Source of the DNA: an uncultured Myxococcales bacterium
Lineage (GTDB): Bacteria; Myxococcota; B64-G9
DNA length: 64,000 nucleotides
Assembly: GCA_964633205.1 (NCBI GenBank)
Contig: CAZWFN010000016.1
Coordinates: 50 to 64,049, forward strand
Direction: 5' to 3'
Below the pieces are notes generated by a model that saw only the letters and a list, made by a program, of their open reading frames with translations, was not told the DNA's origin and made no database searches. A program made the position numbers and the translations under genes. Within the stretch, counting starts at the first letter, position 1; each line of letters begins with the position of its first letter. Of this stretch, positions 2,200 through 37,452 are shown one piece after another.

Positions 2200-2330
2200 G
2201 CCGCTCTCGCCAGCGATTTGCACTGTCAAAACCGGATGATGCGCAAAGCGGCGGCGCTTGACAGGCCGCGAGCGGATGCCGCAGTATTCCCCTGTCCGGG
2301 CTGTGCTTTTCCCGCATTGGAGGTCTTGTC

Positions 2331-5729: not shown

Positions 5730-5733
5730 GACC

Positions 5734-8649
5734 ATGCGCTGTAGCGACTCGCGTTGGTGGATTCCGGGGGCGGTGCTGGGCCTGGCGCTCGGCTGGGCGG
5801 CCTGTGGCGGCGGGGGGGATGGGCCGTGCGCCGGGGTCGATTGCTCGCTGCACGGCTCCTGCCGGGTGGAGGCGGGCCAGCCGCGCTGCGACTGCGATCC
5901 GGGCTACGTGGCCGACGGGCTGGTCTGCCACCCGGACTGGTGCCGCGACATCGTCTGCGACCACGGGGTCTGCGTGCAGGACGCCGAACGCGGCGGCTGC
6001 GACTGCCAGGCCGGCTGGGCCGGGCCGAGCTGCGATGGCTGCGCCGCGGGTTACCATCTGGACAACGGCGCCTGCCTGCCGGATGCCCCCTGCGACACCG
6101 ATCCCTGCATCCACGGGGTCTGCCGGGTGGTCGCCGGCGAGGAGGTGTGCGACTGCGACACCGGCTACGCCGGCGAGCGCTGCGACCGCTGCGCCGCGGG
6201 CTACCACGCCGAGGGGCTGGACTGCGTGCCCGACGAAGACAACCCCTGCGCGCCCAACCCCTGCGACGAGGCGCACCGCAGCCGGTGCACCCCGGACGGC
6301 ACCGGTGGCTATGACTGCGGCTGCGACGCCGGCTACCACGACGAAGGGGGGCAATGCGTGCCCGACGACGACAACCCCTGCCAGCCCAACCCCTGCGACC
6401 AGCCGCACCGCAGCCAGTGCACCCCGGACGGCGCCGGCGGCTACGACTGTGGCTGCGACCCCGGCTACCACGACCAGGGCGGCCAGTGCGTGCCCGACGG
6501 CGGCGACCCCTGCGATCCCAACCCCTGCGATGCGCCGCACCGCACGCTGTGTACGCCGGACGGTGACGGCGGCTACGCCTGCGCTTGCGACCCCGGCTAC
6601 CACGAGGTGGCGGGTGCCTGCCTGCCGGACTGCGACGCGGCCGCCGACCTGTGCGCCGCCGCCCAGCCGTCTTTCGGCACCCTGGTCTCGTCCAACGGCC
6701 ACTGCGCGGTGGGCTACGATCTGGCCGGGCGCCGGGCCGACAGCTTCCTCGAGCACCTGTACCGCAACTGGGACGAAGGGGTCTGGACGCGCGATCTGCT
6801 CTACGATACCTACCTCGGCCTGCGCGGCGGCGACCAGCAGCTGTGGTTGAATGCGGCCGCGCCGCTGCGGGTGGAGTACCAGGCGCAGAGCCATGTGATC
6901 CACACCGTCCACCGGCTGGGGGTCTTCCAGGTCGACACCTGGATCTACGCGCCCTTCGAGCTCGAGCGACCGGCGCTGGTGATCGTCGGCCGGGTGACCA
7001 ACACCGGCGATCGGACCGAGTCCGCCTCGCTGTTCAGCCTGCACAACTACCACGTCGGCAACACCACGGTGGAGCAGCCGGTCGAGCCGGACGCGGCCGA
7101 GGAGCGCCTCGTCTACCAGCCGGACAGCGGCGCCTACCTGGAGACCGGCCCGGGCGGGGCCCTGCTGCACCGGCCGCTGGATGCCACCAGCCACCACGGC
7201 TGCAGCCCGGGCAACCCCTGGCAGGCCTTGACGGCCGGGCAGGACCTGGCCGACACCGCCGACAGCGGCGTCGGCGACGATCGGGTGGCCGGCTTCCAGC
7301 GCGACTTCGAGCTGGCGCCGGGCGCCTCCGGCTGGCTGGGGGTGGTCACCGCCTTCGACCGTTTCGGCGACGGCGACACCCTGGCGGCCGAGCTCGAGGC
7401 GGCCTACGCCGGGCTCGACGGCCGGACCGCGCTGCAAGCCGCCCTGGACGCCTTCGAGGCCTGGCGCAATCCGCCGCCGGCCGGGCTCAGCCCGGCCGAG
7501 CGCTGGGTGTGGCGCCAGAGCGAGGCGGTGCTGCGCCAGGGCCAGGTACGCGAGACCAGCGACCTGTCCCACGGTCAGATCGTGGCCTCGCTGCCGCCGG
7601 GCAACTGGAACATCTGCTGGATGCGCGACATGGCCTACGCCATCGTGGCCCTGGCGCGCACCGGGCACCTGGTCGAGGCCCGCGCCGCGCTGGAGTTCGT
7701 GCTGCTGGCCGACTCCGGCCACTACCAGCAGGACTACGTGGGCGTGCCCTACCAGGTGACCATCACCCGTTACTTCGGCCGCGGTAAGGAGGAGACCGAT
7801 TTCAACGCCGACGGGCCCAACATCGAGTACGACGGCTTCGGGCTGTTTCTGTGGTCGCTGGGCGCCTACCTGGACGCCGGCGGCGACGGCGGCCTGGTCG
7901 ACGCGCACTGGGAGACCATCCGCGATCGCATCGCCGGGGCCCTGGTGGCGCTGATCGACCCGCAGACCGGCCTGATCGCGGCCGACTCGTCCATCTGGGA
8001 AGTGCACTGGAACGGCAACCAGAAGCGCTACAGCTACACCTCGCTGGCCGCCGCCCGCGGCCTGTGCGCCGCGGCCGAGCTGGCCGCGGCCCGCGGCGAG
8101 GACGCCCTGGCCGCCGACTGGCGCGCGGCGGCGATCTCCATCCGCGACGCCCTGGCCGCCCGGGTGGTGGATGCCGATCAGGTACTGGCCTCGTCCTACG
8201 AAGAGCTGCAGTCCGGCGCCGGCTACCACGACGTGGCCTCGGTGGAGGCCTTCGACTGGCGCCTGTTCGATCCGGCTGGCGCCGTCGCCGCCGCCACCCT
8301 GGATTCCTTCGACGCGCTGCTGCGGGTGGCCAGCGGCCGCGGGTTTTTCCGCAACGACGACGGCGGCTGGTACGACTCGCAGGAGTGGGTCTACGCCGAC
8401 CTGCGGGTGGCCATCGCCGCCCGGCGCGCCGGCCGGACCGAGACGGCCGATCGCCTGCTGGGCTGGATCGGCGCTCAGGCGCTGGCCAACCACGGCATGA
8501 TCGCCGAGCTGCACCATCCGCTCGATTCCAGCTACGAGGGCGAGATCCCCATGGTCGGCTACGGCGGCGGCGCCTACATCCTGGCGCTGCTCGATCGCGA
8601 GCAGCCCGCTTCCCCGGAGCCGGCCTGCGGCTCCTGGGAGGCGCGGTGA
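5734..8649 (+). CDS. Lipoprotein with EGF-like Cys repeats fused to a GH15 glucoamylase/glucodextranase-like (alpha/alpha)6 domain
   Basis: ATG with GGAG RBS. Lipobox LGWAAC. Repeats of the same type as the upstream gene. NWNICWMRDMAYAIVAL matches the GH15 WxRD-type motif. About 650 aa catalytic region. Confidence 0.7.
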   Translation: MRCSDSRWWIPGAVLGLALGWAACGGGGDGPCAGVDCSLHGSCRVEAGQPRCDCDPGYVADGLVCHPDWCRDIVCDHGVCVQDAERGGCDCQAGWAGPSCDGCAAGYHLDNGACLPDAPCDTDPCIHGVCRVVAGEEVCDCDTGYAGERCDRCAAGYHAEGLDCVPDEDNPCAPNPCDEAHRSRCTPDGTGGYDCGCDAGYHDEGGQCVPDDDNPCQPNPCDQPHRSQCTPDGAGGYDCGCDPGYHDQGGQCVPDGGDPCDPNPCDAPHRTLCTPDGDGGYACACDPGYHEVAGACLPDCDAAADLCAAAQPSFGTLVSSNGHCAVGYDLAGRRADSFLEHLYRNWDEGVWTRDLLYDTYLGLRGGDQQLWLNAAAPLRVEYQAQSHVIHTVHRLGVFQVDTWIYAPFELERPALVIVGRVTNTGDRTESASLFSLHNYHVGNTTVEQPVEPDAAEERLVYQPDSGAYLETGPGGALLHRPLDATSHHGCSPGNPWQALTAGQDLADTADSGVGDDRVAGFQRDFELAPGASGWLGVVTAFDRFGDGDTLAAELEAAYAGLDGRTALQAALDAFEAWRNPPPAGLSPAERWVWRQSEAVLRQGQVRETSDLSHGQIVASLPPGNWNICWMRDMAYAIVALARTGHLVEARAALEFVLLADSGHYQQDYVGVPYQVTITRYFGRGKEETDFNADGPNIEYDGFGLFLWSLGAYLDAGGDGGLVDAHWETIRDRIAGALVALIDPQTGLIAADSSIWEVHWNGNQKRYSYTSLAAARGLCAAAELAAARGEDALAADWRAAAISIRDALAARVVDADQVLASSYEELQSGAGYHDVASVEAFDWRLFDPAGAVAAATLDSFDALLRVASGRGFFRNDDGGWYDSQEWVYADLRVAIAARRAGRTETADRLLGWIGAQALANHGMIAELHHPLDSSYEGEIPMVGYGGGAYILALLDREQPASPEPACGSWEAR

Positions 8650-8734
8650 GCCGCGGCCGGACCGGTTCCTCGGCGGGGCTCGGGCCGATCGCCGCGCTGT
8701 TGTCGAACGAGGCGGCGTGCATCGGGGGAAGCGG

Positions 8735-9238
8735 ATGAAATGGTGCTCTCTTTGGCTGTGTCTGATGCTGGCGGCCTGCAGCGGCAACGGGGCCGGGCCG
8801 GATGCCGGCTTCGACCCGGACGCTGATCCCTATCCGCCGGACGCCTGGGATCCTGGCGATCCCGACAGCGACCCCTGCGCCGGCGACGGCGGGGCCGACG
8901 GCGGGGCCGACGGCTGTGTGGCCGGGCCGGTCGACTGTGCGCGCGACGACTGCGTGCACGGCGAGTGCATCGACGTGCCCGGCGGGGCCGATTGGTGCGA
9001 TTGCCACAGCGGCTACGCCGGCATGCTGTGCGACCGCTGCGCCGCCGGCTACGTGGCCGTCGGCCTGGAGTGCGTGCCGGCCGGCGGCTGCGCCGACAGC
9101 CCCTGCGTCCACGGCACCTGCCGGCCGCTGCAAGACGGCGATTTTCGCTGCGACTGCGATGCGGGTTACGCCGGCCGGCTGTGCGACCGCTGCGCCGAGG
9201 GCTACCATGTCGAGAACCTGCGCTGTGTGCCCGACTGA
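8735..9238 (+). CDS. Small lipoprotein made only of the EGF-like Cys-repeat module
   Basis: MKWCSLWLCLMLAACSG lipobox. Then CDCHSGYAGMLCDRCAAGY and CDCDAGYAGRLCDRCAEGY repeats paralogous to the N-termini of the two hydrolases. A GTG start at 8717 is an alternative. Confidence 0.6.
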   Translation: MKWCSLWLCLMLAACSGNGAGPDAGFDPDADPYPPDAWDPGDPDSDPCAGDGGADGGADGCVAGPVDCARDDCVHGECIDVPGGADWCDCHSGYAGMLCDRCAAGYVAVGLECVPAGGCADSPCVHGTCRPLQDGDFRCDCDAGYAGRLCDRCAEGYHVENLRCVPD

Positions 9239-12912: not shown

Positions 12913-12955
12913 TGTGTCCGCTAAGCTTCTTCCTGGAGCGAGGAGGGCAGGGACC

Positions 12956-14395
12956 ATGAAGATGGCATTGTTGCTGGTGGGATTCACCGCCCCACTGGTG
13001 CTGGGCTGCGCTGGCGGCGGTAAGGACGATCGCGACGCCGGCCAGCCCTGGCCCGGATGCCCGGGCGGCGACGCCGCGGAAAGCCTGGCGGCCAAGGCGG
13101 CGGCTTTCGACCGGGTGGCGGCCGAGCGGCACCTGGGGCCGGATCGGTTGCTGCGCAATGTCTACTTGACCGCGGACCTGACGGGCGTTGCCAAATACCA
13201 GCACGTGGAGAACGTCATCCTGTGGAGCGGCATGTACCTGGCCTCCCAGGCCTTTCGCTATGCCGTCACCGGCGCTGCCGCCGCCCAGGACAACGCCCGC
13301 CGGGTGCTGCTCGGCCTGACCGATCTGACCCGGGTCACCGGCGTGACCGGCCTCTACGGGCGCTCGCTGGATCGGCCGGACGTGCGCTACAATTTCGACG
13401 GCCGGGGCAGCGCGGGCTGGACCGACTCGAACGCCGCGGACTACCCGGGCTGGGCCTTCCGCAACGACGTGTCCAAGGACGGCTACGCCGGTTTGATGTT
13501 CGGCTACGCGGCCGCCATGGAGCACTTCGACGATCCCCAGCTGCTGGCGCAGGTGCGCGCCCGGCTGCGCGAGGTGGCCGACCATCTGCTGGGCAACGGG
13601 CTGCAGATCGTGGACAGCGACGGTCAGGTGACCGAGCACGGCGCGTTGTACCACACCGCCTTCGACGACTACCCGGGCTTCAACGCCATGCTGGCCTCGT
13701 CCTGGATCAAGGTGGCCGCGTACGAGCTGCAGGACCAGGCGCTGGACGATTTCTACTACGGCTGTCTGATGGGGATGCGCGCCAGGGTGGATTGCCCGGA
13801 CATCGAGGAGATGGACTTCGGCACCTACATCGAGAGCATGGAGGACTACCTGTTCTTGTTCCAGCCCGACTGCAAGCAGAACTACGACAACTTCGACATG
13901 TGCTACCAGGCCATCTACCCGCTGCTGCGCCGCGAGCAGGATCCGCAGCTGCGCAGCCGGCTGCTCGATGTGCTCGAAAGCGAGATGTTCCACACCGCCG
14001 ATGCCCGCTACCAGAGCATGGCCGAGATCGGCTGGGCTTTTTTCACCTACGCCTACGTGGCCCTGTCCGGGGTCCGGGCGGGGCAGGACCCGGTCATCGA
14101 CCGGGCGGTGGAGCTGGCCGCCTGCAATCTGATCGCCTTCCCGGCCGAGAAGGTCGAGCGGCCCATCCCGGCCGGCACGCAGCCCGAAGTCTGCCGCACC
14201 CGGCTGGACGAGCCGGCCGCGGCCGAGCCCATCCCGCTGGCCGAGTACCGCTTCGACAATTACCTGTGGCGGCTGGACCCGTTTGAAATCCAGCAAGGCC
14301 ACCCGGGGGATGAACGCCAGCTCTACTCCCCCGAGGATTACCTGGTGGCCTACTGGCTCGGACGTCTGCATGGCATCCTGAGCGAAGACATGTAG
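12956..14395 (+). CDS. Hypothetical lipoprotein, no recognisable domain; last gene of the glucan locus
   Basis: GGAGG RBS. MKMALLLVGFTAPLVLGC lipobox. Coding-like composition, no family recognised. Confidence 0.55.
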   Translation: MKMALLLVGFTAPLVLGCAGGGKDDRDAGQPWPGCPGGDAAESLAAKAAAFDRVAAERHLGPDRLLRNVYLTADLTGVAKYQHVENVILWSGMYLASQAFRYAVTGAAAAQDNARRVLLGLTDLTRVTGVTGLYGRSLDRPDVRYNFDGRGSAGWTDSNAADYPGWAFRNDVSKDGYAGLMFGYAAAMEHFDDPQLLAQVRARLREVADHLLGNGLQIVDSDGQVTEHGALYHTAFDDYPGFNAMLASSWIKVAAYELQDQALDDFYYGCLMGMRARVDCPDIEEMDFGTYIESMEDYLFLFQPDCKQNYDNFDMCYQAIYPLLRREQDPQLRSRLLDVLESEMFHTADARYQSMAEIGWAFFTYAYVALSGVRAGQDPVIDRAVELAACNLIAFPAEKVERPIPAGTQPEVCRTRLDEPAAAEPIPLAEYRFDNYLWRLDPFEIQQGHPGDERQLYSPEDYLVAYWLGRLHGILSEDM

Positions 14396-16495
14396 TCAAA
14401 GATCCCCGGCGGAGCGGCTCGTCGCTGCTGTCTCGTTCTCGACCAGGGCGGCGATGGCGTTGACCGAGTCGAAGTCGTACTGGTTGAAGCCGGCGGCGGC
14501 GAAGTCCAGGCCGTAGCGCTCCTCGAGCTGGGCGGCCAGATCCACCACCTTGAGCGAGTCCAGCCGGCCGCTGAGGACCAGCGAGTCGTCGTCGCCGAAG
14601 CGCGGCTCGACCTCGACCCGGGCCAGCTGTTGGCGCACCATGGCGCGGATGCGTTGGCGCAAATCGTCGCCCGGGTCTTCGCCGGCCTGCTGCGGGGTCG
14701 AGCGGATGGCCGCCTCGATGTCCGCCAGGCTGCGCAGCTCGGCGGCGATGCGGGCCAGGGCCGTGACCGGGTCGGTTTTTCCGGGCGCTTCGGGCGCTTC
14801 GGATGCTGCGGGCCGGCTGCGGCCGTCCGTGGCCTCCGCCGCGGCTGCCGAGTCCGGATCGTCCGGCTCGCCGGCGCGCTGCGGATCGAAGCGCAGCGCG
14901 GCCGCCTCGCGGCTGGCCAGCGTGCGCCCGCGGCGGCCGTCGGCCAGCTCGCCGTCGGCGCCGGGCAGCGCGGCCAAAAACTGGCGCGCCGGCGCATTGC
15001 GCTCGGTGGCGGTGTACGGGATGACGATGGTCTCGGCGCCGGCCGCTGCGGCCAGCTCGCCGGCGCGGGCCAGCATGCGCTGCTCGACGCCGCGGCCCAG
15101 GGCGCGGCAGGACAGCAGCAGGGTCTCCAGCACCCAGGCGTCCGCTGCGGCGGCGGCGATCAGGACGCCGACCAGGCCGTAGTCGCCGAAGCGGTCGCGC
15201 ACCCGGGTGACCAGGCAATGCGTGCCGGGGGCGGCCAGCAGCTCGGCGACCTCGGCCTGGCTGCGCCGGATCCCGGCGCAGTGGAACTGGTTGGTGCGTT
15301 GGGTCAGCTGGGCGATGCGGGGCAGGTCCCCGGTCGCGGCCGGGTCGATGCGCACCTCGAGCTCGAGCCCGGCCAGGAAATCGGCCAGCGAGGCCGAGCG
15401 CGCGCGCAGCCGGCGGCGCGCCAGCTGGTGGCGGTAGAGTTCGGTGCGCCGGCCGTCCTCGGCGGTGCTGGGACCGCGGTCCAGCGCCCAGCTGGCGTCG
15501 AGGAATGCGGGGATGTCCGCGTCCGCCGCGGGCAGCTGCAAACACAGCACCTGCGGCAGGGCGGCGGTGACTTCGGCGCACTCGATGGGCGAGTCGTCGA
15601 TGAAGACGAAGGAGTCGAGGCCCAGCTCGAGCTCGTCGGCCAGGGCGATCAGGTTGCTGGACTTGGGCTGCCAGTTCACGCGCCAGGCGGTGATTCGATC
15701 GAGGCCCAGGCGCATGTCCGGGTGGTTCTCGAACACGGCCCGCACGTCGGCCTCGCTGTTCTTGCTGCACAGGCAGACCAGGAACCCGGCCGCCGCCCGT
15801 TCGGCCAGCAAGGACTGCAGCCGGGCGTGGCCCGGCTCGATGGTCACGCCCCGCGGCCCGTCCTCGGCGCACACGCCGCGCCACAGGGTGTTGTCGCAGT
15901 CCACCGCGATGACCTTGTAGGGCCGCTGCAGCAGGCTGAACAGCCGCCGCAGCAGCAGGGTTCCCAGGGCGGTGAACAGGCTGTCGCTGTAGGGGATGTG
16001 GGCCAGCGCATCGCGTCGCGGATCGTGGATGCGCGCGACCGGATAGGCCGCCAGCAGCGTGTCCGAGCGCACCGGGTGGACGCCCTCGATGGCGGCCAGG
16101 CGCCGGCAGAGCCCGTCCTCCAGCGCGGCGTAGTCACCGGCCCGCCGGCGGGCGCCGTCGGTCGGCGGGCAGAACAGCACCAGCAGGGGGGTGGCCCGCC
16201 GCCCGGCGCAGCTGGCCACCGCCGACAGGAACTCGTCCTGATCGCTGGCGCTCAGCGGCGGGCCGCGGCGCAGCCAGCCGCGGCGGCGGAACCAGTCCTC
16301 GAGCCGGATCAGCAGCGCGTTGGCGCCGCCGGTGTTGCGGCTCAGAGGGCTGGCCGGATCCAGCAGCTGTTGGAAGACCTGGTTGTAGGCGGCGATCTCG
16401 AGCTCGAGATCGAGTCCCAGCTGCTCGCTCCAGAAGGCGATGACCGGCCGGATCGGATCGGCGGTGAAGGTGGCGGACAGCACCAGGCGGCTCAT
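14396..16495 (-). CDS. FkbH-like HAD-superfamily IIIC phosphatase domain with an N-terminal extension (~190 aa) and a C-terminal acyl/peptidyl carrier protein domain
   Basis: KVIAVDCDNTLWRGV (HAD motif I, DxDxT) and FIDDSPIECAEV are typical of the FkbH-like domain. C-terminus LVLSGRLDSLKVVDLAAQLEERYGLDF carries the DSL phosphopantetheine-attachment motif. ATG at 16495. Confidence 0.8.
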   Translation of the reverse strand: MSRLVLSATFTADPIRPVIAFWSEQLGLDLELEIAAYNQVFQQLLDPASPLSRNTGGANALLIRLEDWFRRRGWLRRGPPLSASDQDEFLSAVASCAGRRATPLLVLFCPPTDGARRRAGDYAALEDGLCRRLAAIEGVHPVRSDTLLAAYPVARIHDPRRDALAHIPYSDSLFTALGTLLLRRLFSLLQRPYKVIAVDCDNTLWRGVCAEDGPRGVTIEPGHARLQSLLAERAAAGFLVCLCSKNSEADVRAVFENHPDMRLGLDRITAWRVNWQPKSSNLIALADELELGLDSFVFIDDSPIECAEVTAALPQVLCLQLPAADADIPAFLDASWALDRGPSTAEDGRRTELYRHQLARRRLRARSASLADFLAGLELEVRIDPAATGDLPRIAQLTQRTNQFHCAGIRRSQAEVAELLAAPGTHCLVTRVRDRFGDYGLVGVLIAAAAADAWVLETLLLSCRALGRGVEQRMLARAGELAAAAGAETIVIPYTATERNAPARQFLAALPGADGELADGRRGRTLASREAAALRFDPQRAGEPDDPDSAAAAEATDGRSRPAASEAPEAPGKTDPVTALARIAAELRSLADIEAAIRSTPQQAGEDPGDDLRQRIRAMVRQQLARVEVEPRFGDDDSLVLSGRLDSLKVVDLAAQLEERYGLDFAAAGFNQYDFDSVNAIAALVENETAATSRSAGDL

Positions 16496-16521
16496 GGCGG
16501 CGGCCTCCCGCGATCACGCTC

Positions 16522-17994
16522 TCACAGCCCGACCAGGCTGAGCAAGAGATCCAGGTTCAGGCGCAGATCGGTCGACTGGTAGGGCACGTAGAAGATCGAC
16601 AGCAGGCAGTAGAAGCCGAGCACGCCCGCCGGGGCGCACACCCGCCGCCGCAGCCAGTGGCTGCCCGCCAGCCGCTCCCGGCTGCGCAGCTGGCTGAGCC
16701 CGATGGCGCAGCCGAGCGCCAGCCCGTAGACCACGTAGACGTGCATGCGGCCCAGCGCCACCAGCGTGCCGTGGCGGGCCACCTCGGCCGGCAGGGCCAG
16801 GAAGTGGTAGAGGATGTTGCCCAGCCCGGCCGCGGCCAGCGTGGCGCAGAACAGGCGCAGCCGGGGATGGCCCTTGAAGAGGCGGAAATAGACCGGGTAG
16901 AAGAAGAACTCGACCAGCAGCTCCTTGAAGTAGTAGTAGTAGCGGTTCCAGAACTCGGCGATGCTGGTCGCCTGCAAGGGCTTGTAGGTGTTGCGCAGGG
17001 CCCGGAAGCCGGCCATGCGGCAGATGGCGATGACCGTGTGGCCCCAGATCGACAGCTCCAGCAAGGTGTGAAAAAAGTTGAACACCACCGCGGCCCAGGC
17101 GGCCGCCGGCGAGAGCGCCCGGCCGGCCGCGCAGGCGGCCAGGGCGCCGTCCATGTCGGCGATCGGCAGCCTTTTGGCCAGCAGGTTCATCGCCCCCAGC
17201 AGCCCGGTCAGCAGCAGCGCCCACCAGAGCAGCTTGAGGCCCTTGAGCTGGGTGACCGCCAGCTGCTCGGCGTCGCGGGCCTCGATCTGGCGCAGGTAGG
17301 CGGCGCCCTTGGGAAAGGGCGTCGGGGTGCCGCCGCCCCAGAAGGGCTGCCAGTGTCCCAGCTGCAGCAGGTGGCCGCCCGCGCCCGCGGCCGGGGCCCG
17401 GCGATCGAGCAGGGCGTAGCCGATGAACCACAGGTAGCTCAGCAGCGGCAGCACCGCGGCCCACAGCCCCAGGGCGACCGCCGGCGGCAAGTGCAGATCG
17501 GCGGCCGCCACCAGCAGGCCACCCGTAACGACCAGCAGCAGCAGCAGCGGCCGGCGCAGCAGCGGGGCGCGCGGATGGCGGCGGACCAGCCAGACCAGGG
17601 CCAGGCCGAACAGCAGCACCAGCCCCAGCCCGCCGATCTGCATGGCCGGCTGGGGCAGCACCAGGGGCTCGCCCAGCGCCTCGGCCCGGGCGGCCAGCAC
17701 GGGCCAGGCCACCCGCTCCAGGCGCAAGGTCCAGGCCAGGGTGCCCAGCAGCAGCCAAAGCCGGCGCTGCCGCGGCCAGAATGTCATCAAGGCCAGCGTG
17801 ACGGAGATCTGGGCAACCGCGTCGGGGGGCAGCAGCCTGGCGATCAGCAGACCCGAAAAGAGGATCAGCAGCACGGCCCGGCCGCCTGCGGACTGGGCGA
17901 ACAGGACCAGGCGCGGGTTGGCGTCGATGTCGACCAGCCGCCTGAAACGGGAGGGGCTCATCGGCTGGCATGGTAGCCAGCCGGCTTCGGGCAA
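16522..17994 (-). CDS. MBOAT family membrane-bound O-acyltransferase (DltB/AlgI-like)
   Basis: Multi-TM protein. FNFFHTLLELSIWGH (conserved His) and RNTYKPLQATSIAEFWNRYYYYFKELLVEFFFYP are MBOAT signatures. TTG start at 17994 or ATG at 17961. Confidence 0.8.
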   Translation of the reverse strand: MPEAGWLPCQPMSPSRFRRLVDIDANPRLVLFAQSAGGRAVLLILFSGLLIARLLPPDAVAQISVTLALMTFWPRQRRLWLLLGTLAWTLRLERVAWPVLAARAEALGEPLVLPQPAMQIGGLGLVLLFGLALVWLVRRHPRAPLLRRPLLLLLVVTGGLLVAAADLHLPPAVALGLWAAVLPLLSYLWFIGYALLDRRAPAAGAGGHLLQLGHWQPFWGGGTPTPFPKGAAYLRQIEARDAEQLAVTQLKGLKLLWWALLLTGLLGAMNLLAKRLPIADMDGALAACAAGRALSPAAAWAAVVFNFFHTLLELSIWGHTVIAICRMAGFRALRNTYKPLQATSIAEFWNRYYYYFKELLVEFFFYPVYFRLFKGHPRLRLFCATLAAAGLGNILYHFLALPAEVARHGTLVALGRMHVYVVYGLALGCAIGLSQLRSRERLAGSHWLRRRVCAPAGVLGFYCLLSIFYVPYQSTDLRLNLDLLLSLVGL

Positions 17995-18018
17995 GCAAGC
18001 GGCGAATGGGGGGATCGA

Positions 18019-18534
18019 TCAGAAGGGAGCGAAGCCGCCGGCGGCCCAGTAGTCCTGCTTCAGGCTGTCGTGCTGGCGCAGCAGCGCATCGTAGTGGCCG
18101 GCCTCCCAGCGCGCCAGGTGATCGTAGAAGCGGCGGATGTTCTCGTCGCCGGCCTTTTCGGCCTGCTCCCGGTAGTAGCGCTCGGAGTTGATCTCCAGCT
18201 GGATGCCGATCGACAGCGCGCTCATCTCGTAGTGCGCGTCGCCGATGCGCCCCTTGAGTCGGTCGGAGAAGATCGGGTTGGGCCCGGACAGATCGGCCGG
18301 CGTGCCCAGCTCGGCCTGGGGGTCGATTTCGCCGCGCTCGATGAGCGATTGGCGCTGGTGCTGCAAAAAGCGCAGGTGATCCAGCTCTTCGCCGGCCAGG
18401 CGTTGGAAGACCTGCTGGCCCTTGGGATCGGAGGTGGCCCGGGAGGCCATCTGGTAGAAGTGGTGGCCGTCGGTCTCGGTGCGCATGGCGTGCTCCAGCC
18501 CGGCGACGATCTCCTTGCGTGCTTCGGCGTCCAT
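18019..18534 (-). CDS. Rubrerythrin/ferritin-like diiron protein
   Basis: MDAEARKEIVAGLEHAMRTETDGHHFYQMAS...GEELDHLRFL...ERYYREQA: paired ExxH-type ferritin-like motifs. Confidence 0.7.
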   Translation of the reverse strand: MDAEARKEIVAGLEHAMRTETDGHHFYQMASRATSDPKGQQVFQRLAGEELDHLRFLQHQRQSLIERGEIDPQAELGTPADLSGPNPIFSDRLKGRIGDAHYEMSALSIGIQLEINSERYYREQAEKAGDENIRRFYDHLARWEAGHYDALLRQHDSLKQDYWAAGGFAPF

Positions 18535-18568
18535 CGCGAATGCTCCCGCCTCGGCTGGCCCTTGGGGC

Positions 18569-19072
18569 TCAGCCGGATTCCAGGTCGAACTCCTGGTAGT
18601 CGAAGTAGAAGCCCATGCCCTGTAGGTGGTCCAGCTCGGCCCGGACCAGTGCCAGGTGGCCCTGTTCGATCTCGACGAAGGGCTCGAACAGCTCGGCCTG
18701 CGCGGGCGGCAGCTCGGCCACCACCCGCTTGTAGAAATCTGAGGTCTGCTGCTCGACCTCCAGCGCACGGGTGGCCAGGTCGATCTCGTCCGGGCACTCC
18801 TTCTGCTCCAGCGGCTGCTTGAGCTTCATCACGCCGGCCTCGATCTTGACCCGCGGTGGTACCGCCGAGCGCAGCTTGGTCGGATTCACCCGCCCGTCGC
18901 GCTTCCACTCGTCGAGCATCTGCTGCAGGGTGTCCAGGTGCTGCTGCTCCTCGTCGGCCAGCACGGAGAAGACCCGGCGGCCCTTGGTGTCGCCGCAGTC
19001 GGCCGCGGCCTGCCGGTAGACGTCGCGCACCTTGGTCTCGTACTCCATGGCGGTTCGGATGGCTTGCTCCAT
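18569..19072 (-). CDS. Ferritin-like/rubrerythrin-family protein
   Basis: MEQAIRTAMEYETKVRDVYRQAA...EEQQHLDTLQ...EQQTSDFYKRV...EQGHLALV: two ferritin-like half-sites. Confidence 0.65.
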   Translation of the reverse strand: MEQAIRTAMEYETKVRDVYRQAAADCGDTKGRRVFSVLADEEQQHLDTLQQMLDEWKRDGRVNPTKLRSAVPPRVKIEAGVMKLKQPLEQKECPDEIDLATRALEVEQQTSDFYKRVVAELPPAQAELFEPFVEIEQGHLALVRAELDHLQGMGFYFDYQEFDLESG

Positions 19073-19143
19073 GTCCACGGCGGTGCTCCCTTCGTCAGCC
19101 GGCCGGCCCGGGGGATGCCCGGGCCGGCCGGAAAACCATTGGC

Positions 19144-19665
19144 TCAGGCTTCCTCTCCACCCGTGGTGGGAATGGCGACCTGGCGTTGGCTGAGCTCGCG
19201 ATCGAGCATCAGCACGCCGTGGCCGTGCTCGCCGACCAGCTCGAGGTTGTCCACGATGCGCGAGACGCTCGATTCCTCCTCGACCTGCTCGTCGACGAAC
19301 CATTCCAGGAAGGTCCGCGCCGGCCGATCCTTGGCCTCCTCGCTCAGGCCGACCAGCTCGTCGATCTTGCCGCTGATGAAGCGCTCGTGCTCCAACGCGT
19401 CCTTGAAGGCCTCCAGCGGCGTCTCCCAACGGGTCTTCTTGATTCCCAGCGGTTGCATGGTCACCGCGCCGCCGCGATCCAGGATGTGATCCATGAAGCG
19501 CTGGGCGTGGCCCATCTCCTCCACCGCCTGCGAGCGCATCCACTGGGCCATGCCGTCGAGGGAGCGTTCCTGGAACCAGGCGGACATGGCGAAGTAGAGG
19601 TAGGCCGATTCGGCCTCGTACTTGATCTGGTCGTTGAAGGCCTGCTTGACCTTGTCGTCGATCAT
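19144..19665 (-). CDS. Non-heme ferritin (Ftn family)
   Basis: MIDDKVKQAFNDQIKYEAESAYLYFAMSAWF...AVEEMGHAQRFMDHI...ALEHERFISGKIDEL is the bacterial ferritin pattern. Confidence 0.8.
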   Translation of the reverse strand: MIDDKVKQAFNDQIKYEAESAYLYFAMSAWFQERSLDGMAQWMRSQAVEEMGHAQRFMDHILDRGGAVTMQPLGIKKTRWETPLEAFKDALEHERFISGKIDELVGLSEEAKDRPARTFLEWFVDEQVEEESSVSRIVDNLELVGEHGHGVLMLDRELSQRQVAIPTTGGEEA

Positions 19666-19713
19666 CGCGTCTCTCCTTTCCGCCGACCGGGGTGGTTGGC
19701 GCGAGCGGGCGGT

Positions 19714-20229
19714 CTATCCGACCAGCTCGCGGACCGCCCGCAGGACGGCGTCGTAGTCCGGCTCGTGGCCGATATCGGGCACCAGCTGGACGTAGCGGAT
19801 CACGTCATCGGCGTCGATGACGAATACCGATCGGGCCAGCAACCGCAGCTCGGGGATCAGCATGCCGTAAGCGCTGCCGAATGCGGCCTGGCGGTGATCC
19901 GACAGCACGAGCAGCCGCTCGCTGCCGGTGGCGGCGCACCAGCGCTCCAAGGCGAACGGCAGGTCCATGCTGATGGCCAACAGCTGCAGCGCTTCGTCGA
20001 AAGCGGTGATCTTGTGATCGAATCGGCGGGCCTCGCGATCGCCGATCGGGGTGTCCAGCGATGGCAGCGACAGCAGCACCCGCGGCCGGCCCGCCAGCGT
20101 GCCGAGACGAAACGGACGGGCCTGCGGATCGAGCGCGGTGAAGTCGGGGGCCTTGTCGCCCACCTGCAGCTCGTCTCCGCCCAGGGCCAGCGTTCGACCC
20201 TGCTGGGTCACTGTGCGTTCGGTGCTCAC
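19714..20229 (-). CDS. tpx: Thiol peroxidase (Tpx)-family protein with Gly at the peroxidatic Cys position
   Basis: Aligns along its length with E. coli Tpx (KAPDFTA..., ISMDLPFALERWCAATG resolving-Cys region, EPDYDAVLRAV). SLDTPIGD replaces SIDTGVCA. Codons checked on the DNA at 20041-20055. Confidence 0.7.
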   Translation of the reverse strand: MSTERTVTQQGRTLALGGDELQVGDKAPDFTALDPQARPFRLGTLAGRPRVLLSLPSLDTPIGDREARRFDHKITAFDEALQLLAISMDLPFALERWCAATGSERLLVLSDHRQAAFGSAYGMLIPELRLLARSVFVIDADDVIRYVQLVPDIGHEPDYDAVLRAVRELVG

Positions 20230-20256
20230 CGCGCACCCCCCGATCGAAATCGCCGC

Positions 20257-20724
20257 TCAGTTCTCGGTCAATACCTGCTCGTCGTACTCCATCTCGAAGC
20301 GCAGCTTGTGCTTGGCCTCCTCCTGGGCCAGACCCTGCAGCAGCCCCTGCAACGCGGCATCCTCGGCCACGTTGGCCAGCTCGGTGTAGAGGCGGAACGA
20401 GGCCTTCTCCTTCTTCATGGCCAGGATCAGCGCATCCTGGTAGTCCATGTTGGGCGTCGGTTCGGCGTCGACCAGGTACTCGCCGATCTTCAGGTCCAGC
20501 ACCTTGCCCGCCGGCAAGCCGGTGGCGCCGCCCTGCTTGACGTTTTGCAGCTTGGCCTTGTGCCCTTGCTCCTCCTTGGCGAAGTCCTCGAACACCTTCT
20601 TCATCCAGGGCCGGTCGAGCTTGCTGGCCAGGTCGGTGTAGAAGGCGGCCGCCTTCTCCTCTTCGGAGATGGCGAAGTCGAGGATTTCATCCACCGAGTT
20701 GAACTGCTTCATCTTCTCCTCCAT
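20257..20724 (-). CDS. Ferritin-like (rubrerythrin/erythrin family) protein
   Basis: EEEKAAAFYTDLASK...FAKEEQGHKAKL...MKKEKASFRLYTELA...AQEEAKHKLRFE: two ExxH motifs. Confidence 0.65.
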   Translation of the reverse strand: MEEKMKQFNSVDEILDFAISEEEKAAAFYTDLASKLDRPWMKKVFEDFAKEEQGHKAKLQNVKQGGATGLPAGKVLDLKIGEYLVDAEPTPNMDYQDALILAMKKEKASFRLYTELANVAEDAALQGLLQGLAQEEAKHKLRFEMEYDEQVLTEN

Positions 20725-20754
20725 TGGTTCGGGTCGTTCGGGTTGATCGATCGC

Positions 20755-21957
20755 TCATGCGTTGGAACGCCAGGCGTGATCGATGCAGGCCGAGGGGGTG
20801 CCATCCGCCTCGACAAAGGGTGACAGATCGCGCAGGCGATCGACGATGCCGGGCATGTGCTCGAGCACCGTATCGATCTCCGGTTCCGTCGTGTAGCGGC
20901 TCAGGCTGAATCGGATCGAGCCGTGGGCCGCGGTGAAGGGCACGCCCATGGCCCGCAGCACGTGCGAGGGCTCCAACGAGCCCGAGGTGCAGGCCGAGCC
21001 GGACGAGGCGGCGATGCCCAGATCGTCGAGCATGATCAACACCGACTCGCCCTCGATGTACTCGAAGGAGATGTTCAGGGTATTGGGCAAGCGGTGCTTG
21101 CCGTTGATCACCGGCCCCTTGCAGTTTCGCTCCAGGCCTTGCTGCAGCTTGTCGCGCAATGCCCGCACCCGGCTGTTCTCCTCGCCGATCTGGCCGGCGG
21201 CCATCTCGGCGGCCTGGCCCAGCCCCACGATGGCGGCCGTGTTCTCGGTGCCGGCGCGGCGGCCGCCCTCCTGGTGGCCGCCGATGATCAGCGGCACCAG
21301 CTTGGTGCCCTTGCGCACGTAGAGCGCGCCGATGCCCTTGGGCGCGTGCAGCTTGTGGCCGGAGATGGTCAGCATGTCGACCGGGGTGTTGGCCATGTCG
21401 AGCGGCAGCTTGCCGGCCGCCTGCACCCCATCGGTGTGGAACAGCACGCCCTGGGCGCGGCACATGGCGGCGATGCGCTCAATGGGGAACAACACGCCGG
21501 TCTCGTTGTTGGCCCACATGATGGTCACCAGCGCGGTCTCCGGGGTCAGGTGCTGCTCGAAGAAATCCATGTCGAGCCCACCGTCGCGGTCGACCGGTAC
21601 CTCGGTCACCTTGTAGCCGCGCTTGGCCAGGTGCTGCAGCAGGCCGCGCACGGCCGGGTGCTCGACGCGGCTGGTGATGACCTGGCGCTTCTTGCCGGGC
21701 ATGGCTTCGAGCGCGCCGCGGATGGCCGTATTGTCGCCCTCGGAACCGCCGCTGGTGAACACGATCTCGTCGGGGCGCGCCCCCAGCAGCCCGGCCACCT
21801 GCTCGCGGGCGCGGGTCAGGTGCTTGCCCACCCGGCCGCCGAAGTGGTGGATGGAGGAGGGGTTGCCGTACAGCTCGGTCCAGAAGGGCTGCATGGCCTC
21901 GACCACCTCGGGCGCCACCATGGTGGTGGCGTTGTTGTCCAGGTAGATGTTTTTCAT
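20755..21957 (-). CDS. nifS: Cysteine desulfurase NifS
   Basis: MKNIYLDNNATT...FTSGGSEGDNTAIRG...ISGHKLHAPKGIGALYVRKG (PLP Lys)...SSGSACTSGSLEPSHVLRAMG (active Cys loop). ATG at 21957 overlaps nifU. Confidence 0.85.
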   Translation of the reverse strand: MKNIYLDNNATTMVAPEVVEAMQPFWTELYGNPSSIHHFGGRVGKHLTRAREQVAGLLGARPDEIVFTSGGSEGDNTAIRGALEAMPGKKRQVITSRVEHPAVRGLLQHLAKRGYKVTEVPVDRDGGLDMDFFEQHLTPETALVTIMWANNETGVLFPIERIAAMCRAQGVLFHTDGVQAAGKLPLDMANTPVDMLTISGHKLHAPKGIGALYVRKGTKLVPLIIGGHQEGGRRAGTENTAAIVGLGQAAEMAAGQIGEENSRVRALRDKLQQGLERNCKGPVINGKHRLPNTLNISFEYIEGESVLIMLDDLGIAASSGSACTSGSLEPSHVLRAMGVPFTAAHGSIRFSLSRYTTEPEIDTVLEHMPGIVDRLRDLSPFVEADGTPSACIDHAWRSNA

Positions 21958-22841
21958 GATGCCTCCTCCTCGAGCGCCTCCTGCTCGACCACCTCGAGGT
22001 TCTCGTCGACGAACTCGCGCAGCTTGGTCTGGACCACGGTGGACAGGGTGAAGTTGGCCACCTTGCACGAGGCGCAGGTGCCGCGCAGGCTGACGATGAC
22101 GTCGTCGCCGTCGAGATCGATCAGCTCGATGTCGCCGCCGTCCTTCTGCAGCTGGGGCCGGATCTCGCGATCGATGGTCTCCTGGATGAGCTGGATCTTC
22201 TGGATGTTGGTCAGCTTCTTGCGCTTGGGCTCGGCCGGCGGGGCCGCCTCCGCCTCCGCCTTCTCGGCCTTGACGGTCTCCAGGATCTCGGCGATCTGAT
22301 CCTGGCAGCCGCCGCAGCCGCCGCCGGCCTTGGTGTAGTTGGTCACCTCTTCGATGGTGGTCAGGCCGTTTTCGCGGATGGCGCGCTCGATCTCGATCCG
22401 GGTCACCCCGAAGCAGACGCAGACCACGTCGACGTCCTGCTTGGGTTGATCGGCCGGGACGCGACCTTCCTTCTTGGCCCGGTAGTCATCGATGGCGGCC
22501 AGCAGCGCGTCGCGGCCCATCACCGAGCAATGCATCTTCTGCTCCGGCAGGCCACCGAGGTAGTCGGCGATCTCCTTGTTGGTGATGCGGGCGGCCTCGT
22601 CCAGGGTCTTGCCCTTGACCAGCTCGGACAGAGCCGAGGAGGAGGCGATGGCCGAGGCGCAGCCGAAGGTCTGGAACTTCACCTCCTGGATGCGCTCCTG
22701 CGCGTCGACCTTGAGCATCAGCTTCAGCGCATCGCCGCAGGCCAGCGAGCCGACCAGCCCGGTGCCGTCCGGGTTTTCGATGGCACCCACGTTGCGTGGG
22801 TTGCGGAAGTGCTCCATCACCTTTTCGTTGTAGTCCCACAT
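21954..22841 (-). CDS. nifU: Full-length NifU Fe-S scaffold (IscU-like N-domain, central [2Fe-2S] domain, C-terminal Nfu domain)
   Basis: MWDYNEKVMEHFRNPRNVG...GSLACGDALKL...FGCASAIASS, central CGGC, C-terminal CASC. Confidence 0.85.
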   Translation of the reverse strand: MWDYNEKVMEHFRNPRNVGAIENPDGTGLVGSLACGDALKLMLKVDAQERIQEVKFQTFGCASAIASSSALSELVKGKTLDEAARITNKEIADYLGGLPEQKMHCSVMGRDALLAAIDDYRAKKEGRVPADQPKQDVDVVCVCFGVTRIEIERAIRENGLTTIEEVTNYTKAGGGCGGCQDQIAEILETVKAEKAEAEAAPPAEPKRKKLTNIQKIQLIQETIDREIRPQLQKDGGDIELIDLDGDDVIVSLRGTCASCKVANFTLSTVVQTKLREFVDENLEVVEQEALEEEAS

Positions 22842-23274
22842 GTCTGTCCAGCCTCCGTGGCGCCCCGAGCGAAGGGCGCGTCATCCAGGGCCCGCCTCGC
22901 CCGTGGCGTAGGATCTCGCCTGCCGCCGCCGCGCCCGTCCTGTCCGCTTTGGTCGCTGCTCATCCCGCATGCCCATTCAAGGCTCAACGAGCATGCCATT
23001 GCCGACCAAGCTTTCCAAGTACATCTTTGTCTTGCTACTACAGCGACTTGATCCCGATGGCGGCTGCGCCTCCTTCCTGCCGCCAGTCGCTGAAGCGCTT
23101 CCAGCCACCACCTCCCGTGGGGGCCAGCCCCACCGTTTCGAAAGCGCAATGTGGTATCGACAGGCGGCCTCGTCAACAGATCCGAAAGCCGACAGATTGA
23201 ATCTCGAATCTGGATTTCGGGTACATATTCTGCTAGTGCTCGCTGGATGGTGCCGCGAACGTCGGGGGCTGCTC

Positions 23275-24132
23275 ATGGATGAAAACCTGCTGCTGGCCTT
23301 CGGCCTGACGACCCTTGCCGGTCTGTCGACCGGCATCGGCAGCGCCCTGGCCTTCTTCACCCGCCGCACCAACACCCGCTTCCTCTCGGCCAGCCTGGGC
23401 TTTTCGGCCGGGGTGATGATCTACGTCTCCTTCGTCGAGATCCTGCCCAAGGCCATCGACGCCATCGCCGCCGAGCACCCCGCGGCCAGCGCCACCCGGC
23501 TGGGCACGGCCGGCTTTTTCGCCGGCATGCTGCTGATCGCGGTCATCGATCGCCTGATCCCCAGCTACGAGAATCCGCACGAGGCCCGGCAGGTCGAGCA
23601 GCTGCGCGAGTGCGCCGGGGATGGGGCCGCGGCGGCCGGCATGCCGGGGGCCATCGTCGAGGCCGGCCAGCAGGACGGCCGGCGCCTGCTGCGCATGGGC
23701 ATGTTGTCGGCGCTGGCCATCGCCATCCACAACTTCCCGGAAGGCCTGGCCACCTTTGCCGCCGTGCTGGACGATCCGGCCATCGGGCTGTCGATCGCGG
23801 TGGCCATCGCCATCCACAACATCCCCGAGGGCATCGCGGTGTCGGTGCCGATCTTCTACGCCACCGGCAGCCGCAAGAAGGCCTTCTGGCTGTCGTTTTT
23901 GTCCGGCCTGAGCGAGCCGCTGGGGGCGCTGATCGGCTTTCTTTTGCTGCAAGCCGTGTTCACCCCGATGGTGTTCGGCTTCGTGTTCGCCGGCGTGGGC
24001 GGGATCATGGTGTTCATCTCGATCGACGAGCTGTTCCCGGCCGCGCGCGAGTACGGCCACGGCCACCTGGCCATCTACGGCCTGGTGGTCGGCATGGCGG
24101 TGATGGCCGTCAGCCTGCTGCTGTTCTTGTAG
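23275..24132 (+). CDS. zupT: Zinc transporter ZupT (ZIP family)
   Basis: MDENLLLAFGLTTLAGLSTGIG...AIAIHNFPEGLA...AIAIHNIPEGIAVSVPI: ZIP-family HNxPEG motifs. Confidence 0.85.
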   Translation: MDENLLLAFGLTTLAGLSTGIGSALAFFTRRTNTRFLSASLGFSAGVMIYVSFVEILPKAIDAIAAEHPAASATRLGTAGFFAGMLLIAVIDRLIPSYENPHEARQVEQLRECAGDGAAAAGMPGAIVEAGQQDGRRLLRMGMLSALAIAIHNFPEGLATFAAVLDDPAIGLSIAVAIAIHNIPEGIAVSVPIFYATGSRKKAFWLSFLSGLSEPLGALIGFLLLQAVFTPMVFGFVFAGVGGIMVFISIDELFPAAREYGHGHLAIYGLVVGMAVMAVSLLLFL

Positions 24133-24176
24133 GCCAGCCGCGGACCGAAGCCCCCGCGGGAGCCAGGTGGCGCGAT

Positions 24177-24680
24177 TCAGGCGAAACGCTCGAAGCGGTC
24201 CTGGTCCACGTAGCAGACCGGGCACTTCAGCGGCGGCTGGGGCCGGGCGCACAAATAGCCGCAGACCCGGCAGCGCCACACCGGCAGCTTGCCGGCGGCG
24301 AAGGGGCCGCCCTCGGTGTCGGCTCTGTCCTTGTTCTGCGGCCGCTCGGCCGCATCGGTGGGGCGCCGTTCCGGGATGGAGCCGATCTTCTGCTCGCCCG
24401 CGACCACCGCCTGGCTGACGTACAGCGCGCAGTAGCAGGTGCCGTGGTCCTCCAGGTCCGGATCGCGGTAGTCGCAGGGACAGATGATGTCCAGGTCCCG
24501 CTGCCGCTCGCCGTCGAGGTCGCGGCAGGGGCAGCCGAAGTAGCCGTAGCGCTGCTGGTTGGTCTGCAGCCCCTCCATCAGGTCGAGCACCATCTCCTCG
24601 TCCGGGTTGAGGAAGTAGCCGCCCTCGCGCGCCTCTTTGGCGAAGCGCTGCATCAGCTCGCGGGCCTGTTCGCGGCTCAT
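24177..24680 (-). CDS. Ferredoxin:thioredoxin reductase catalytic-subunit-like domain fused to a C-terminal rubredoxin-type zinc/iron ribbon
   Basis: YFGCPCRDLDGERQRDLDIICPCDYRDPDLEDHGTCYCALY is the CPC-x16-CPC-xn-CxC FTR catalytic motif. C-terminal WRCRVCGY...CPVC is rubredoxin-like. Confidence 0.7.
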   Translation of the reverse strand: MSREQARELMQRFAKEAREGGYFLNPDEEMVLDLMEGLQTNQQRYGYFGCPCRDLDGERQRDLDIICPCDYRDPDLEDHGTCYCALYVSQAVVAGEQKIGSIPERRPTDAAERPQNKDRADTEGGPFAAGKLPVWRCRVCGYLCARPQPPLKCPVCYVDQDRFERFA

Positions 24681-24937
24681 AGCCCCAACAGCTCCCGCAT
24701 GCGGTCCTCGTCGTAGCCCACCACCACCTGGTCGCCGATGATCAGGGTGGGGTAGGAGCGCCGCGGGTTGACCTCGGCCACCGCGGCCCGGGCCTTTTCC
24801 TTCTCCTCGCCCTCGAGCTGATCCACGTCGGTGACCTCGGCCGGTACCTTGTTCTGTTCCAGAAAGCGCTTGGTGCGCCGGCACCAGCCGCAGGTGCTGA
24901 TGGCGTAGAGTTTGACTTGCTCGGCCATGACTTCCAC
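24677..24937 (-). CDS. Glutaredoxin/NrdH-like small thioredoxin-fold protein
   Basis: 86 aa. KLYAISTCGWCRRTKRFL (CxxC). TLIIGDQVVVGYD is the Grx-like motif. Overlaps the FTR-like gene by 4 nt. Confidence 0.6.
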   Translation of the reverse strand: MEVMAEQVKLYAISTCGWCRRTKRFLEQNKVPAEVTDVDQLEGEEKEKARAAVAEVNPRRSYPTLIIGDQVVVGYDEDRMRELLGL

Positions 24938-37341: not shown

Positions 37342-37452
37342 GGATCCCCAACTCACTGCATGCCGTCTCTGCGTTCGATCAAGACATGGACCCCCGCCCG
37401 CAGGGCGGGGGGATCCCCAACTCACTGCATGCCGTCTCTGCGTTTGATCATC
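37342..37452. repeat. Two copies of a 40-bp direct repeat (GGATCCCCAACTCACTGCATGCCGTCTCTGCGTT[C/T]GATCA) 69 bp apart, flanking a GC hairpin CCCCGCCCGCAGGGCGGGG
   Basis: Read directly at 37342-37383 and 37411-37452. Sits between two convergent genes. The second copy supplies the last codons (GMQ) and the stop of the 37422-40544 ORF. Confidence 0.6.

Follow-up and report, generated by a model that had tools for sequence, protein, structure and literature searches.

An FkbH-acyl carrier protein fusion paired with a DltB-like membrane protein that lacks the catalytic histidine: a candidate acylation unit in an uncultured Myxococcales bacterium

To our knowledge, carrier-protein-dependent acylation by MBOAT-fold membrane proteins is known in detail from one system, the Gram-positive Dlt system (DltA, DltB, DltC, DltD and DltX). 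Dlt has an effect on antimicrobial-peptide resistance, and it is a drug target. It combines a loader, a carrier and an MBOAT-fold membrane enzyme, and the same combination is encoded by two adjacent genes in the window analyzed here, a 64,000-nucleotide stretch of contig CAZWFN010000016.1 from an uncultured Myxococcales bacterium (assembly GCA_964633205.1). Both genes lie on the minus strand. The first encodes a membrane protein of 479 residues (16522-17961), and the second, 26 bp downstream, encodes a 699-residue fusion of an FkbH-like domain with an acyl carrier protein (ACP) (14396-16495). Compared with Dlt, the host is a diderm, the loader is an FkbH domain fused to its carrier, the position of DltB His336 is a tyrosine, PF03062 is not matched, and no DltD, DltX or tyrosine hexapeptide was found (PMC11035591, PMC12148441). 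The PatA/PatB and AlgI/AlgJ/AlgX systems have the MBOAT fold and, as proposed here, trans-membrane acyl transfer in common with the module. They use acyl-CoA, a C-terminal tyrosine hexapeptide on the MBOAT protein and an SGNH partner (PMC12148441), whereas here the donor would be a carrier protein and the other two elements were not found. The module is therefore not a Dlt, Pat or Alg system as these are defined, because it departs from them in the histidine, the SGNH partner, the shuttle motif and PF03062.

The loader has its own set of relatives. In the OzmB/FkbH reaction 1,3-bisphosphoglycerate is converted to glyceryl-S-enzyme and then to glyceryl-S-ACP, and these enzymes of methoxymalonyl-ACP and tetronate pathways share with the fusion protein the TIGR01686 domain, the HAD motifs and the expected chemistry (PMC9057759, PMC7489565); an invariant cysteine of the fusion protein is the candidate for the residue that would hold the glyceryl group. 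OzmB is a 366-residue protein with a separate ACP, whereas the ACP here is fused and of a Dlt-like cassette type. The methoxymalonyl-ACP and tetronate pathways also contain dehydrogenases, an O-methyltransferase, a FabH-like enzyme and a polyketide synthase (PKS), none of which appeared in the Pfam survey of the window. Two proposed precedents come from the aeruginosin family: the AerB loading module, an FkbH domain with a peptidyl carrier protein (PCP), for glycerate loading outside PKS extender-unit pathways, and AerO/AerP/AerQ for a trio of adenylation (A) domain, PCP and MBOAT (PMC10143770). Both lie inside nonribosomal peptide synthetase (NRPS) clusters and act on a peptide product, whereas no NRPS is present here and the FkbH-carrier and MBOAT-like proteins are paired directly. 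BF1531 of Bacteroides fragilis (PDB 3slr) has the N-terminal domain and HAD-IIIC architecture in common with the FkbH-ACP protein; 3slr is described only as an uncharacterized protein with a phosphatase domain, and the structure covers the N-terminal part only. We know of no carrier or MBOAT link for BF1531. Searches of the open-access literature, which also covered carrier-dependent MBOAT proteins of Gram-negative bacteria and cassettes of adenylation enzyme, ACP and MBOAT protein, turned up no account of an FkbH-carrier and MBOAT pair or of the histidine-less family.

The gene pair probably forms a self-contained Dlt-like acylation unit of different construction, in which a glyceryl group would be loaded by the FkbH domain and transferred by the MBOAT-fold protein. 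The main weight falls on the unannotated cassette family to which the membrane protein belongs and on the modularity of its loaders, ahead of the FkbH fusion by itself. The features of the module are as follows.

14396 to 16495, minus strand: FkbH-ACP fusion protein, 699 residues (profile matches; AlphaFold2 model with a mean predicted local distance difference test score, pLDDT, of 83.5)
14405 to 14665, minus strand: carrier (ACP) domain, residues 611-697 (PF00550; Ser647 in GRLDSL)
14666 to 14956, minus strand: linker rich in Ala, Pro, Asp and Glu, residues 514-610, partly predicted to be disordered
14957 to 15388, minus strand: GNAT-fold subdomain of the FkbH domain, residues ~370-513 (GNAT structure matches; Ser462-Cys463-Arg464)
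15491 to 15916, minus strand: HAD-IIIC phosphatase core, residues 194-335 (matches to TIGR01681, TIGR01686 and 3slr)
15926 to 16495, minus strand: N-terminal alpha/beta domain of the BF1531 type, residues 1-190 (Foldseek match to 3slr; conserved in a 37-sequence alignment)
16496 to 16521, minus strand: intergenic spacer of 26 bp, with the Shine-Dalgarno sequence GGGAGG at 16504-16509
16522 to 17961, minus strand: MBOAT-fold, DltB-like membrane protein, 479 residues, of an unannotated family
16804 to 16806, minus strand: His386, invariant in the family and aligned with a histidine of the outgroup MBOAT downstream of its catalytic histidine; codon verified
16921 to 16947, minus strand: motif Asn339-Arg340-Tyr341-Tyr342-Tyr343-Tyr344-Phe345-Lys346-Glu347 (FWNRYYYYFKE), in place of the canonical FW(N/Q)RWH(I/M)SLS; codons verified

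Fold comparison assigns the membrane protein to the MBOAT fold with DltB as the nearest structure. The link to DltB is one of fold only, and sequence searches of the PDB were blank with the family profile at E ≤ 1 and with the motif region alone at E ≤ 10. PF03062 was not matched at E ≤ 10 by the window protein or two relatives, and it scores 119.8 bits on a canonical MBOAT encoded in locus L025 of a Desulfobulbaceae metagenome-assembled genome (MAG). No Pfam family at all was matched by the membrane protein, even at E ≤ 10, and the signal for the NCBIfam DltB model was weak (E 3e-4, 20 bits against a cut-off of 375). No homologue of the protein carries a name other than 'hypothetical'. When 1.84 billion representatives were searched exhaustively with the profile, the matches ended at 983 clusters at E ≤ 1e-3, 422 of them at E ≤ 1e-30, which marks the membrane protein as belonging to a small family of its own. 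An earlier note on this DNA, made from the sequence without database searches, had placed an MBOAT of the DltB, AlgI and PatA family 26 bp upstream of the FkbH gene in the same orientation. The spacing, the fold and the proximity to DltB stand, but the protein is not a canonical member, because it fails PF03062 and carries tyrosine at the position of the histidine. The canonical MBOAT gene (L025:1832-3283, plus strand) lies about 7 kb upstream of a histidine-less cassette, so the two kinds coexist in one genome.

The catalytic His336 of DltB follows Trp335 (PMC11035591). Alignment of the family profile with the canonical MBOAT of L025 by hhalign sets DFWQRWHISLS against EFWNRYYYYFK, MAFFT gives the same columns, and the catalytic-histidine position thus corresponds to Tyr342. 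Across 79 members aligned with MAFFT this position is occupied by Tyr (69), Phe (4), Asn (2), Leu (2), His (1) and Ala (1). Asn339, Arg340, Tyr344, Lys346, Glu347 and His386 are invariant in the same members. The most conserved block is residues 307-328 (WGHxIIAxCRMAGFxALRNTYxPL), just upstream of the FWNR motif. Counting of offsets suggests that this block corresponds to the region of DltB containing the horizontal helix that docks DltC (PMC11035591). The family alignment has no invariant tyrosine at the C-terminus, and the family is therefore without the acyl-shuttle hexapeptide known for DltX and PatA (PMC12148441).

The tyrosine at the catalytic position (Phe, Asn, Leu or Ala in some members), the undetectable Pfam MBOAT signal and the absence of linked acceptor-related genes would also fit a membrane protein that is no acyltransferase, serving instead as a docking platform, channel, transporter or thioesterase-like release factor for a product that is a free or exported small molecule. 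We consider this unlikely, because the six invariant residues and the 307-328 block point to a conserved catalytic or binding site, and because the loader and carrier with which the protein is obligately linked are just what a transferase would require. For the transferase favored here, the replacement of the histidine by tyrosine requires a chemistry at the membrane step other than the one DltB uses, and the candidate residues are Tyr344, Lys346, Glu347 and His386.

The usual genomic setting of the family was determined from a scan of one genome per species, which found 317 genomes with a relative of the membrane protein; 80 loci were fetched, all from MAGs. The fetched loci come from Acidobacteriota, Xanthomonadales and other Gammaproteobacteria, Desulfobulbaceae, Gemmatimonadota, Planctomycetota, Methylomirabilis and Polyangia. 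The 79 genome loci compared (L005-L083), fetched with the family profile, are all of the non-FkbH type. Clustering of all open reading frames (ORFs) in the fetched loci yielded only two conserved neighbors, a protein of ~80 residues encoded directly downstream and one of ~520 residues encoded directly upstream of the MBOAT-like gene. The upstream protein is an amino-acid adenylation enzyme that scores 308-337 bits on TIGR01733 (cut-off 317.4, passed by one of the two sequences tested) and 255-272 bits on the DltA model. An FD(x)S motif was read in the sequences of this enzyme, and the aspartate of that motif in adenylation domains binds the α-amino group. Counts with hidden Markov models (HMMs) over L005-L083 found the cassette-type ACP in 75 of 79 loci and the adenylation enzyme in 69 of 79. 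Six of the ten loci without the enzyme are cut by a contig end and the other four lack it within 10 kb. These four (L012, L026, L064 and L067) have complete upstream flanks, and a search among their neighbors for a third type of loader found none; the genes there encode sensor kinases, ABC and MacB transporters, YidC, a peptidase and a sulfatase.

The cassette is compact. Its ACP gene lies mostly within 25 bp of the MBOAT-like gene, and in three annotated contexts (L164-L166) the AMP-binding gene, the MBOAT-like gene and the small ACP gene overlap or are tightly spaced in otherwise unrelated surroundings. None of these three contexts has SGNH, glycosyltransferase or polysaccharide genes, and no FkbH domain occurs in the cassette loci L005-L083. 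Examples of the cassette are L007:8420-11706, L164:6422-9697, L165:6332-9699 and L166:6430-9713. Its membrane protein and ACP have no Pfam annotation. The combination of a DltA-like enzyme, a histidine-less MBOAT-fold protein and an ACP of ~80 residues appears to be an uncharacterized cassette of many diderm phyla, present in more than 300 species-level MAG genomes. An S-adenosylmethionine methyltransferase of ~520 residues accompanies the cassette in 17 loci (L020:6720-8279, L026:11426-13075, L166:4770-6329 and 14 more), usually just past the ACP gene. Its ends weakly resemble the C-terminal subdomain of adenylation enzymes, and it may modify the carrier-bound amino acid.

The same loci bear on the route of transfer. 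In a classical Dlt/Pat/Alg relay a tyrosine shuttle would receive the acyl group from the MBOAT-like protein and hand it on to an SGNH transferase, here one encoded elsewhere in the genome, which would form the ester on a surface polysaccharide. DltB is the closest structure of the membrane protein, an SGNH partner and an acyl-tyrosine shuttle operate in the bacterial MBOAT systems investigated to date (PMC12148441), and gellan is an exopolysaccharide that bears glycerate esters, of the L-isomer (PMC9104527). Such a relay is nonetheless improbable here. No SGNH/DltD-like gene stands among the conserved neighbors in 83 loci with flanks of up to 10 kb, a partner elsewhere in the genome being possible, and none was found in L164-L166 or in the window Pfam survey. 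The family has no invariant C-terminal tyrosine, the spacers of 26 bp and 57 bp are too short for a DltX-like ORF within the module, and polysaccharide synthesis genes are not nearby. A relay to a surface polysaccharide, close to the prediction in the earlier note of O-acylation of a surface polysaccharide or lipid, is thus not indicated, since no SGNH, DltD, AlgJ or AlgX partner, DltX or C-terminal tyrosine motif was found in the window or among the conserved neighbors.

The window and a few relatives depart from the usual cassette in their loader. In L001/L002 (94% identity) and L003/L004 (46-50%) an FkbH-ACP gene directly follows the MBOAT-like gene without an adenylation enzyme, and a DltA-type adenylation gene is absent from the window and from L001-L004. 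The neighborhoods of L003/L004 and of L084, a metagenome locus of the L003 lineage, are unrelated to that of the window, and the pair is the sole element that they have in common with it. A metagenome scan with the FkbH-ACP protein returned 486 relatives. Among the best 80 of these loci, one (L084, of the L003 lineage) has an MBOAT-like neighbor, 35 have NRPS A or condensation (C) motifs and none has a ketosynthase (KS) motif; all three kinds of motif are absent from the window, L001-L004 and L084. The fused ACP of the window is 40-53% identical to 71 cassette ACPs, and the cassette-ACP HMM scores 82-87 bits on the fused ACPs of L001-L004. Only P0001 and P0002 among the best 120 FkbH-family homologues match the window ACP, and both are encoded beside an MBOAT-like gene. 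A neighbor-joining tree rooted on the canonical MBOAT places the three FkbH-type membrane proteins in one clade nested among those of the A-type cassettes. The fused cassette-type ACP, the absent adenylation gene and the nested FkbH clade together indicate that the loader was swapped. The simplest reading is that an FkbH unit from an often NRPS-linked family was fused to the ACP of the cassette itself and displaced the adenylation enzyme. Linkage of loader, carrier and membrane protein is obligate in the family, and the loader is exchanged. These results support the central idea of the earlier note, that an FkbH loader stands in place of a DltA-type ligase, and its statement that no PKS or NRPS genes are near; its question whether the pair is conserved in other genomes is answered by L001-L004 and L084.

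That the adjacency is incidental and the FkbH-ACP protein supplies glyceryl-ACP to a PKS, NRPS or tetronate pathway elsewhere is very improbable, for although NRPS motifs occur in those 35 loci and many homologues are fused to C or thioesterase (TE) domains, such motifs are missing from the window and the related pair loci, the window Pfam survey holds no dehydrogenase, O-methyltransferase or FabH-like companions, the fused ACP is of the MBOAT-cassette type, unlike the ACPs of other FkbH fusions, and the pair is kept across two contexts. In the wider FkbH-ACP lineages a GT4-like glycosyltransferase of ~440 residues, classed by the look of its sequence, often follows the FkbH-ACP gene (L093:10180-11499 and 23 other loci among L085-L163), which hints at glycerate-containing glycoconjugates there.

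The FkbH-ACP protein has four folded parts, a BF1531-type N-terminal domain, a HAD-IIIC phosphatase, a GNAT-fold subdomain and the ACP, which is preceded by the disordered linker. Profile matches are above cut-off for TIGR01686 (FkbH; 288.3 bits against 146.65, residues 194-513), TIGR01681 (HAD-IIIC; 51.3 bits against 35.75) and PF00550 (31.2 bits against 20.8, residues 614-685), and phmmer matched the HAD region to 3slr at E 8e-21. The HAD motifs are intact: DxDxT (Asp199, Asp201), Lys245 and Asp300-Asp301 are invariant in the 37-sequence alignment and aligned to 3slr, with codons verified. Also invariant in that alignment are the Ser462-Cys463-Arg464 triplet (codons verified), in which Cys463 is a candidate acyl-S-enzyme residue, and the carrier residues Gly643, Ser647, the phosphopantetheine serine of the D-S-L motif (codon verified), and Leu648. 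The description in the earlier note of an FkbH-like HAD-IIIC protein with its own C-terminal carrier domain is therefore secure, as are the carrier serine and HAD aspartates on which it depended. In the AlphaFold model residues 544-571 and 601-610 have pLDDT values below 50. Foldseek matches the model to 3slr over 362 columns of the 376-residue chain (TM score 0.72 on the target), spanning the N-terminal and HAD domains, and residues ~370-513 match many GNAT acetyltransferase structures (E 1e-5 to 1e-6). The N-terminal domain is common to thousands of FkbH-like homologues; many of these also have an ACP, and a TE or C domain is added in some. The ~190 residues that the earlier note set apart as an extra domain are thus the ordinary architecture of long FkbH-like proteins. 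A weak NCBIfam match of the ACP to 'ACP_for_OlsHI' was dropped, being far below cut-off; OlsH/OlsI belong to a GH3-like ornithine-lipid pathway.

The proposed mechanism starts with the FkbH domain, which would take 1,3-bisphosphoglycerate, remove the phosphate at the HAD site and hold the glyceryl group on Cys463, as expected from the FkbH family. The glyceryl group would then be passed to the phosphopantetheine arm on Ser647 of the protein's own C-terminal carrier domain. Gene linkage and the likeness to DltB suggest that the tethered glyceryl-S-ACP would dock on the cytoplasmic face of the MBOAT-fold protein and insert its arm, and that the membrane protein would transfer the acyl group to an acceptor in, or beyond, the inner membrane. 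We infer from what is known of the FkbH family that glycerate is the acyl group, and by analogy with DltC and DltB that the ACP docks on the membrane protein, which then transfers the group. In the favored route a single enzyme would pass the group directly to a widespread constituent of the envelope, for instance the head group of a membrane lipid or a glycan that is periplasmic or lipid-linked; this route is preferred over a Dlt/Pat relay because no SGNH partner, DltX-like peptide or polysaccharide genes are linked. The A-type cassettes would aminoacylate, and the loader exchange would turn the acyl group from an amino acid into a neutral dihydroxy acid. A broader proposal is put forward tentatively and at a little less than even chance: a branch of the MBOAT fold without the histidine, SGNH partner or tyrosine shuttle may carry out carrier-dependent acylation of the diderm envelope with interchangeable loaders, perhaps by way of Tyr344, Lys346, Glu347 and His386 and conceivably through an acyl-tyrosine.

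Several points weigh against an acylation unit of this kind. With the invariant MBOAT histidine missing and some variation at position 342, the membrane protein is not certain to be an acyltransferase. The hhalign result that places Tyr342 at the histidine position is modest by itself (probability 29.5%, E 5.7e-4), with MAFFT in agreement. The FkbH version occurs in two lineages only (window/L001/L002 and L003/L004/L084), and its clade comes from a single neighbor-joining tree without support values. The module lies 57 bp downstream of oxidative-stress genes in the same orientation, and the sequence scan drew no operon boundary between them. What the FkbH domain loads, which donor the membrane protein takes and which acceptor it acylates are all inferred.

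The locus points to a second family, structurally related to the membrane proteins of Dlt, in many uncultured diderm lineages, without the hallmark histidine or the SGNH and DltX helpers. If the proposal is true, an aminoacyl or glyceroyl modification of a lipid or glycan that has not yet been described would occur in many uncultured bacteria, among them Acidobacteriota, Gammaproteobacteria and Desulfobulbaceae. The exchange of loaders is a natural test of the modularity of the family, and its mechanism would test whether the MBOAT fold can transfer an acyl group without an invariant histidine. The FkbH version offers a convenient experimental handle for finding the acceptor: a glyceroyl ester adds a neutral mass of +88 Da, which should be easier to trace in lipids and glycans than an amino acid.

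The two-gene observation is confirmed as real and is no artefact. The window has a G+C content of ~70%, at which G+C at third codon positions (GC3) sorts the coding ORFs; GC3 is 0.93 for ORF 14396-16495 and 0.95 for ORF 16522-17994. An alternative TTG start at 17994 would give a membrane protein of 490 residues, and the start is most likely the ATG at 17961, which gives the same length (479 residues) as called in the 94%-identical metagenomic relative. The GGGAGG in the spacer ends 8 nt before the ATG of the FkbH-ACP gene. A scan of 14000-18700 for promoters and terminators found nothing above shuffle expectation.

Genes for oxidative stress and Fe-S assembly (rubrerythrin-like genes, ferritin, Tpx, NifS and NifU) lie upstream on the same strand (18019-22841), and 57 bp separate the last rubrerythrin-like gene from the start of the membrane-protein gene. 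They are part of a dense oxidative-stress and iron cluster that adjoins the module (18019-24937, minus strand) and contains three rubrerythrin/ferritin-like genes, ferritin, Tpx, NifS, NifU, glutaredoxin and a ferredoxin-thioredoxin-reductase β chain fused to a rubredoxin-like domain. A plus-strand ZIP transporter gene (22969-24132) falls inside this span.

Downstream and convergent with the module are a gene for a 493-residue protein and then a maltodextrin cluster with amylases and a LamB porin. The 493-residue ORF (12914-14395, plus strand; GC3 0.90) abuts the stop of an amylase gene, and its own stop adjoins that of the FkbH-ACP gene (14395/14396). It was excluded as a member of the module, having no Pfam or NCBIfam match and being absent from the 94%-identical L001. 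The window encodes this LamB porin and also a FadL-type outer-membrane protein, which together identify the host as a diderm. By its DnaJ the host is closest to MAGs of uncultured 'Deltaproteobacteria' and Myxococcales, with 52-66% identity to the hits that carry names.

EGF-like domains are unusual in bacteria. Multiple copies are present in three proteins encoded at 2262-9238 (plus strand), two very large glycoside hydrolases (an α-amylase family protein of ~1150 residues and a GH15-like protein of 971 residues) and a 173-residue protein, next to the LamB-type porin and another amylase. ORFs 37422-40649 (minus strand, 1075 residues) and 51579-53564 (plus strand, 661 residues) have a strong coding signal and no Pfam match. 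The ORF at 25083-27926 (minus strand) encodes a 947-residue repeat protein rich in Cys and Asp, with a MopE-like metal-binding motif and apparent β-propeller-type repeats.

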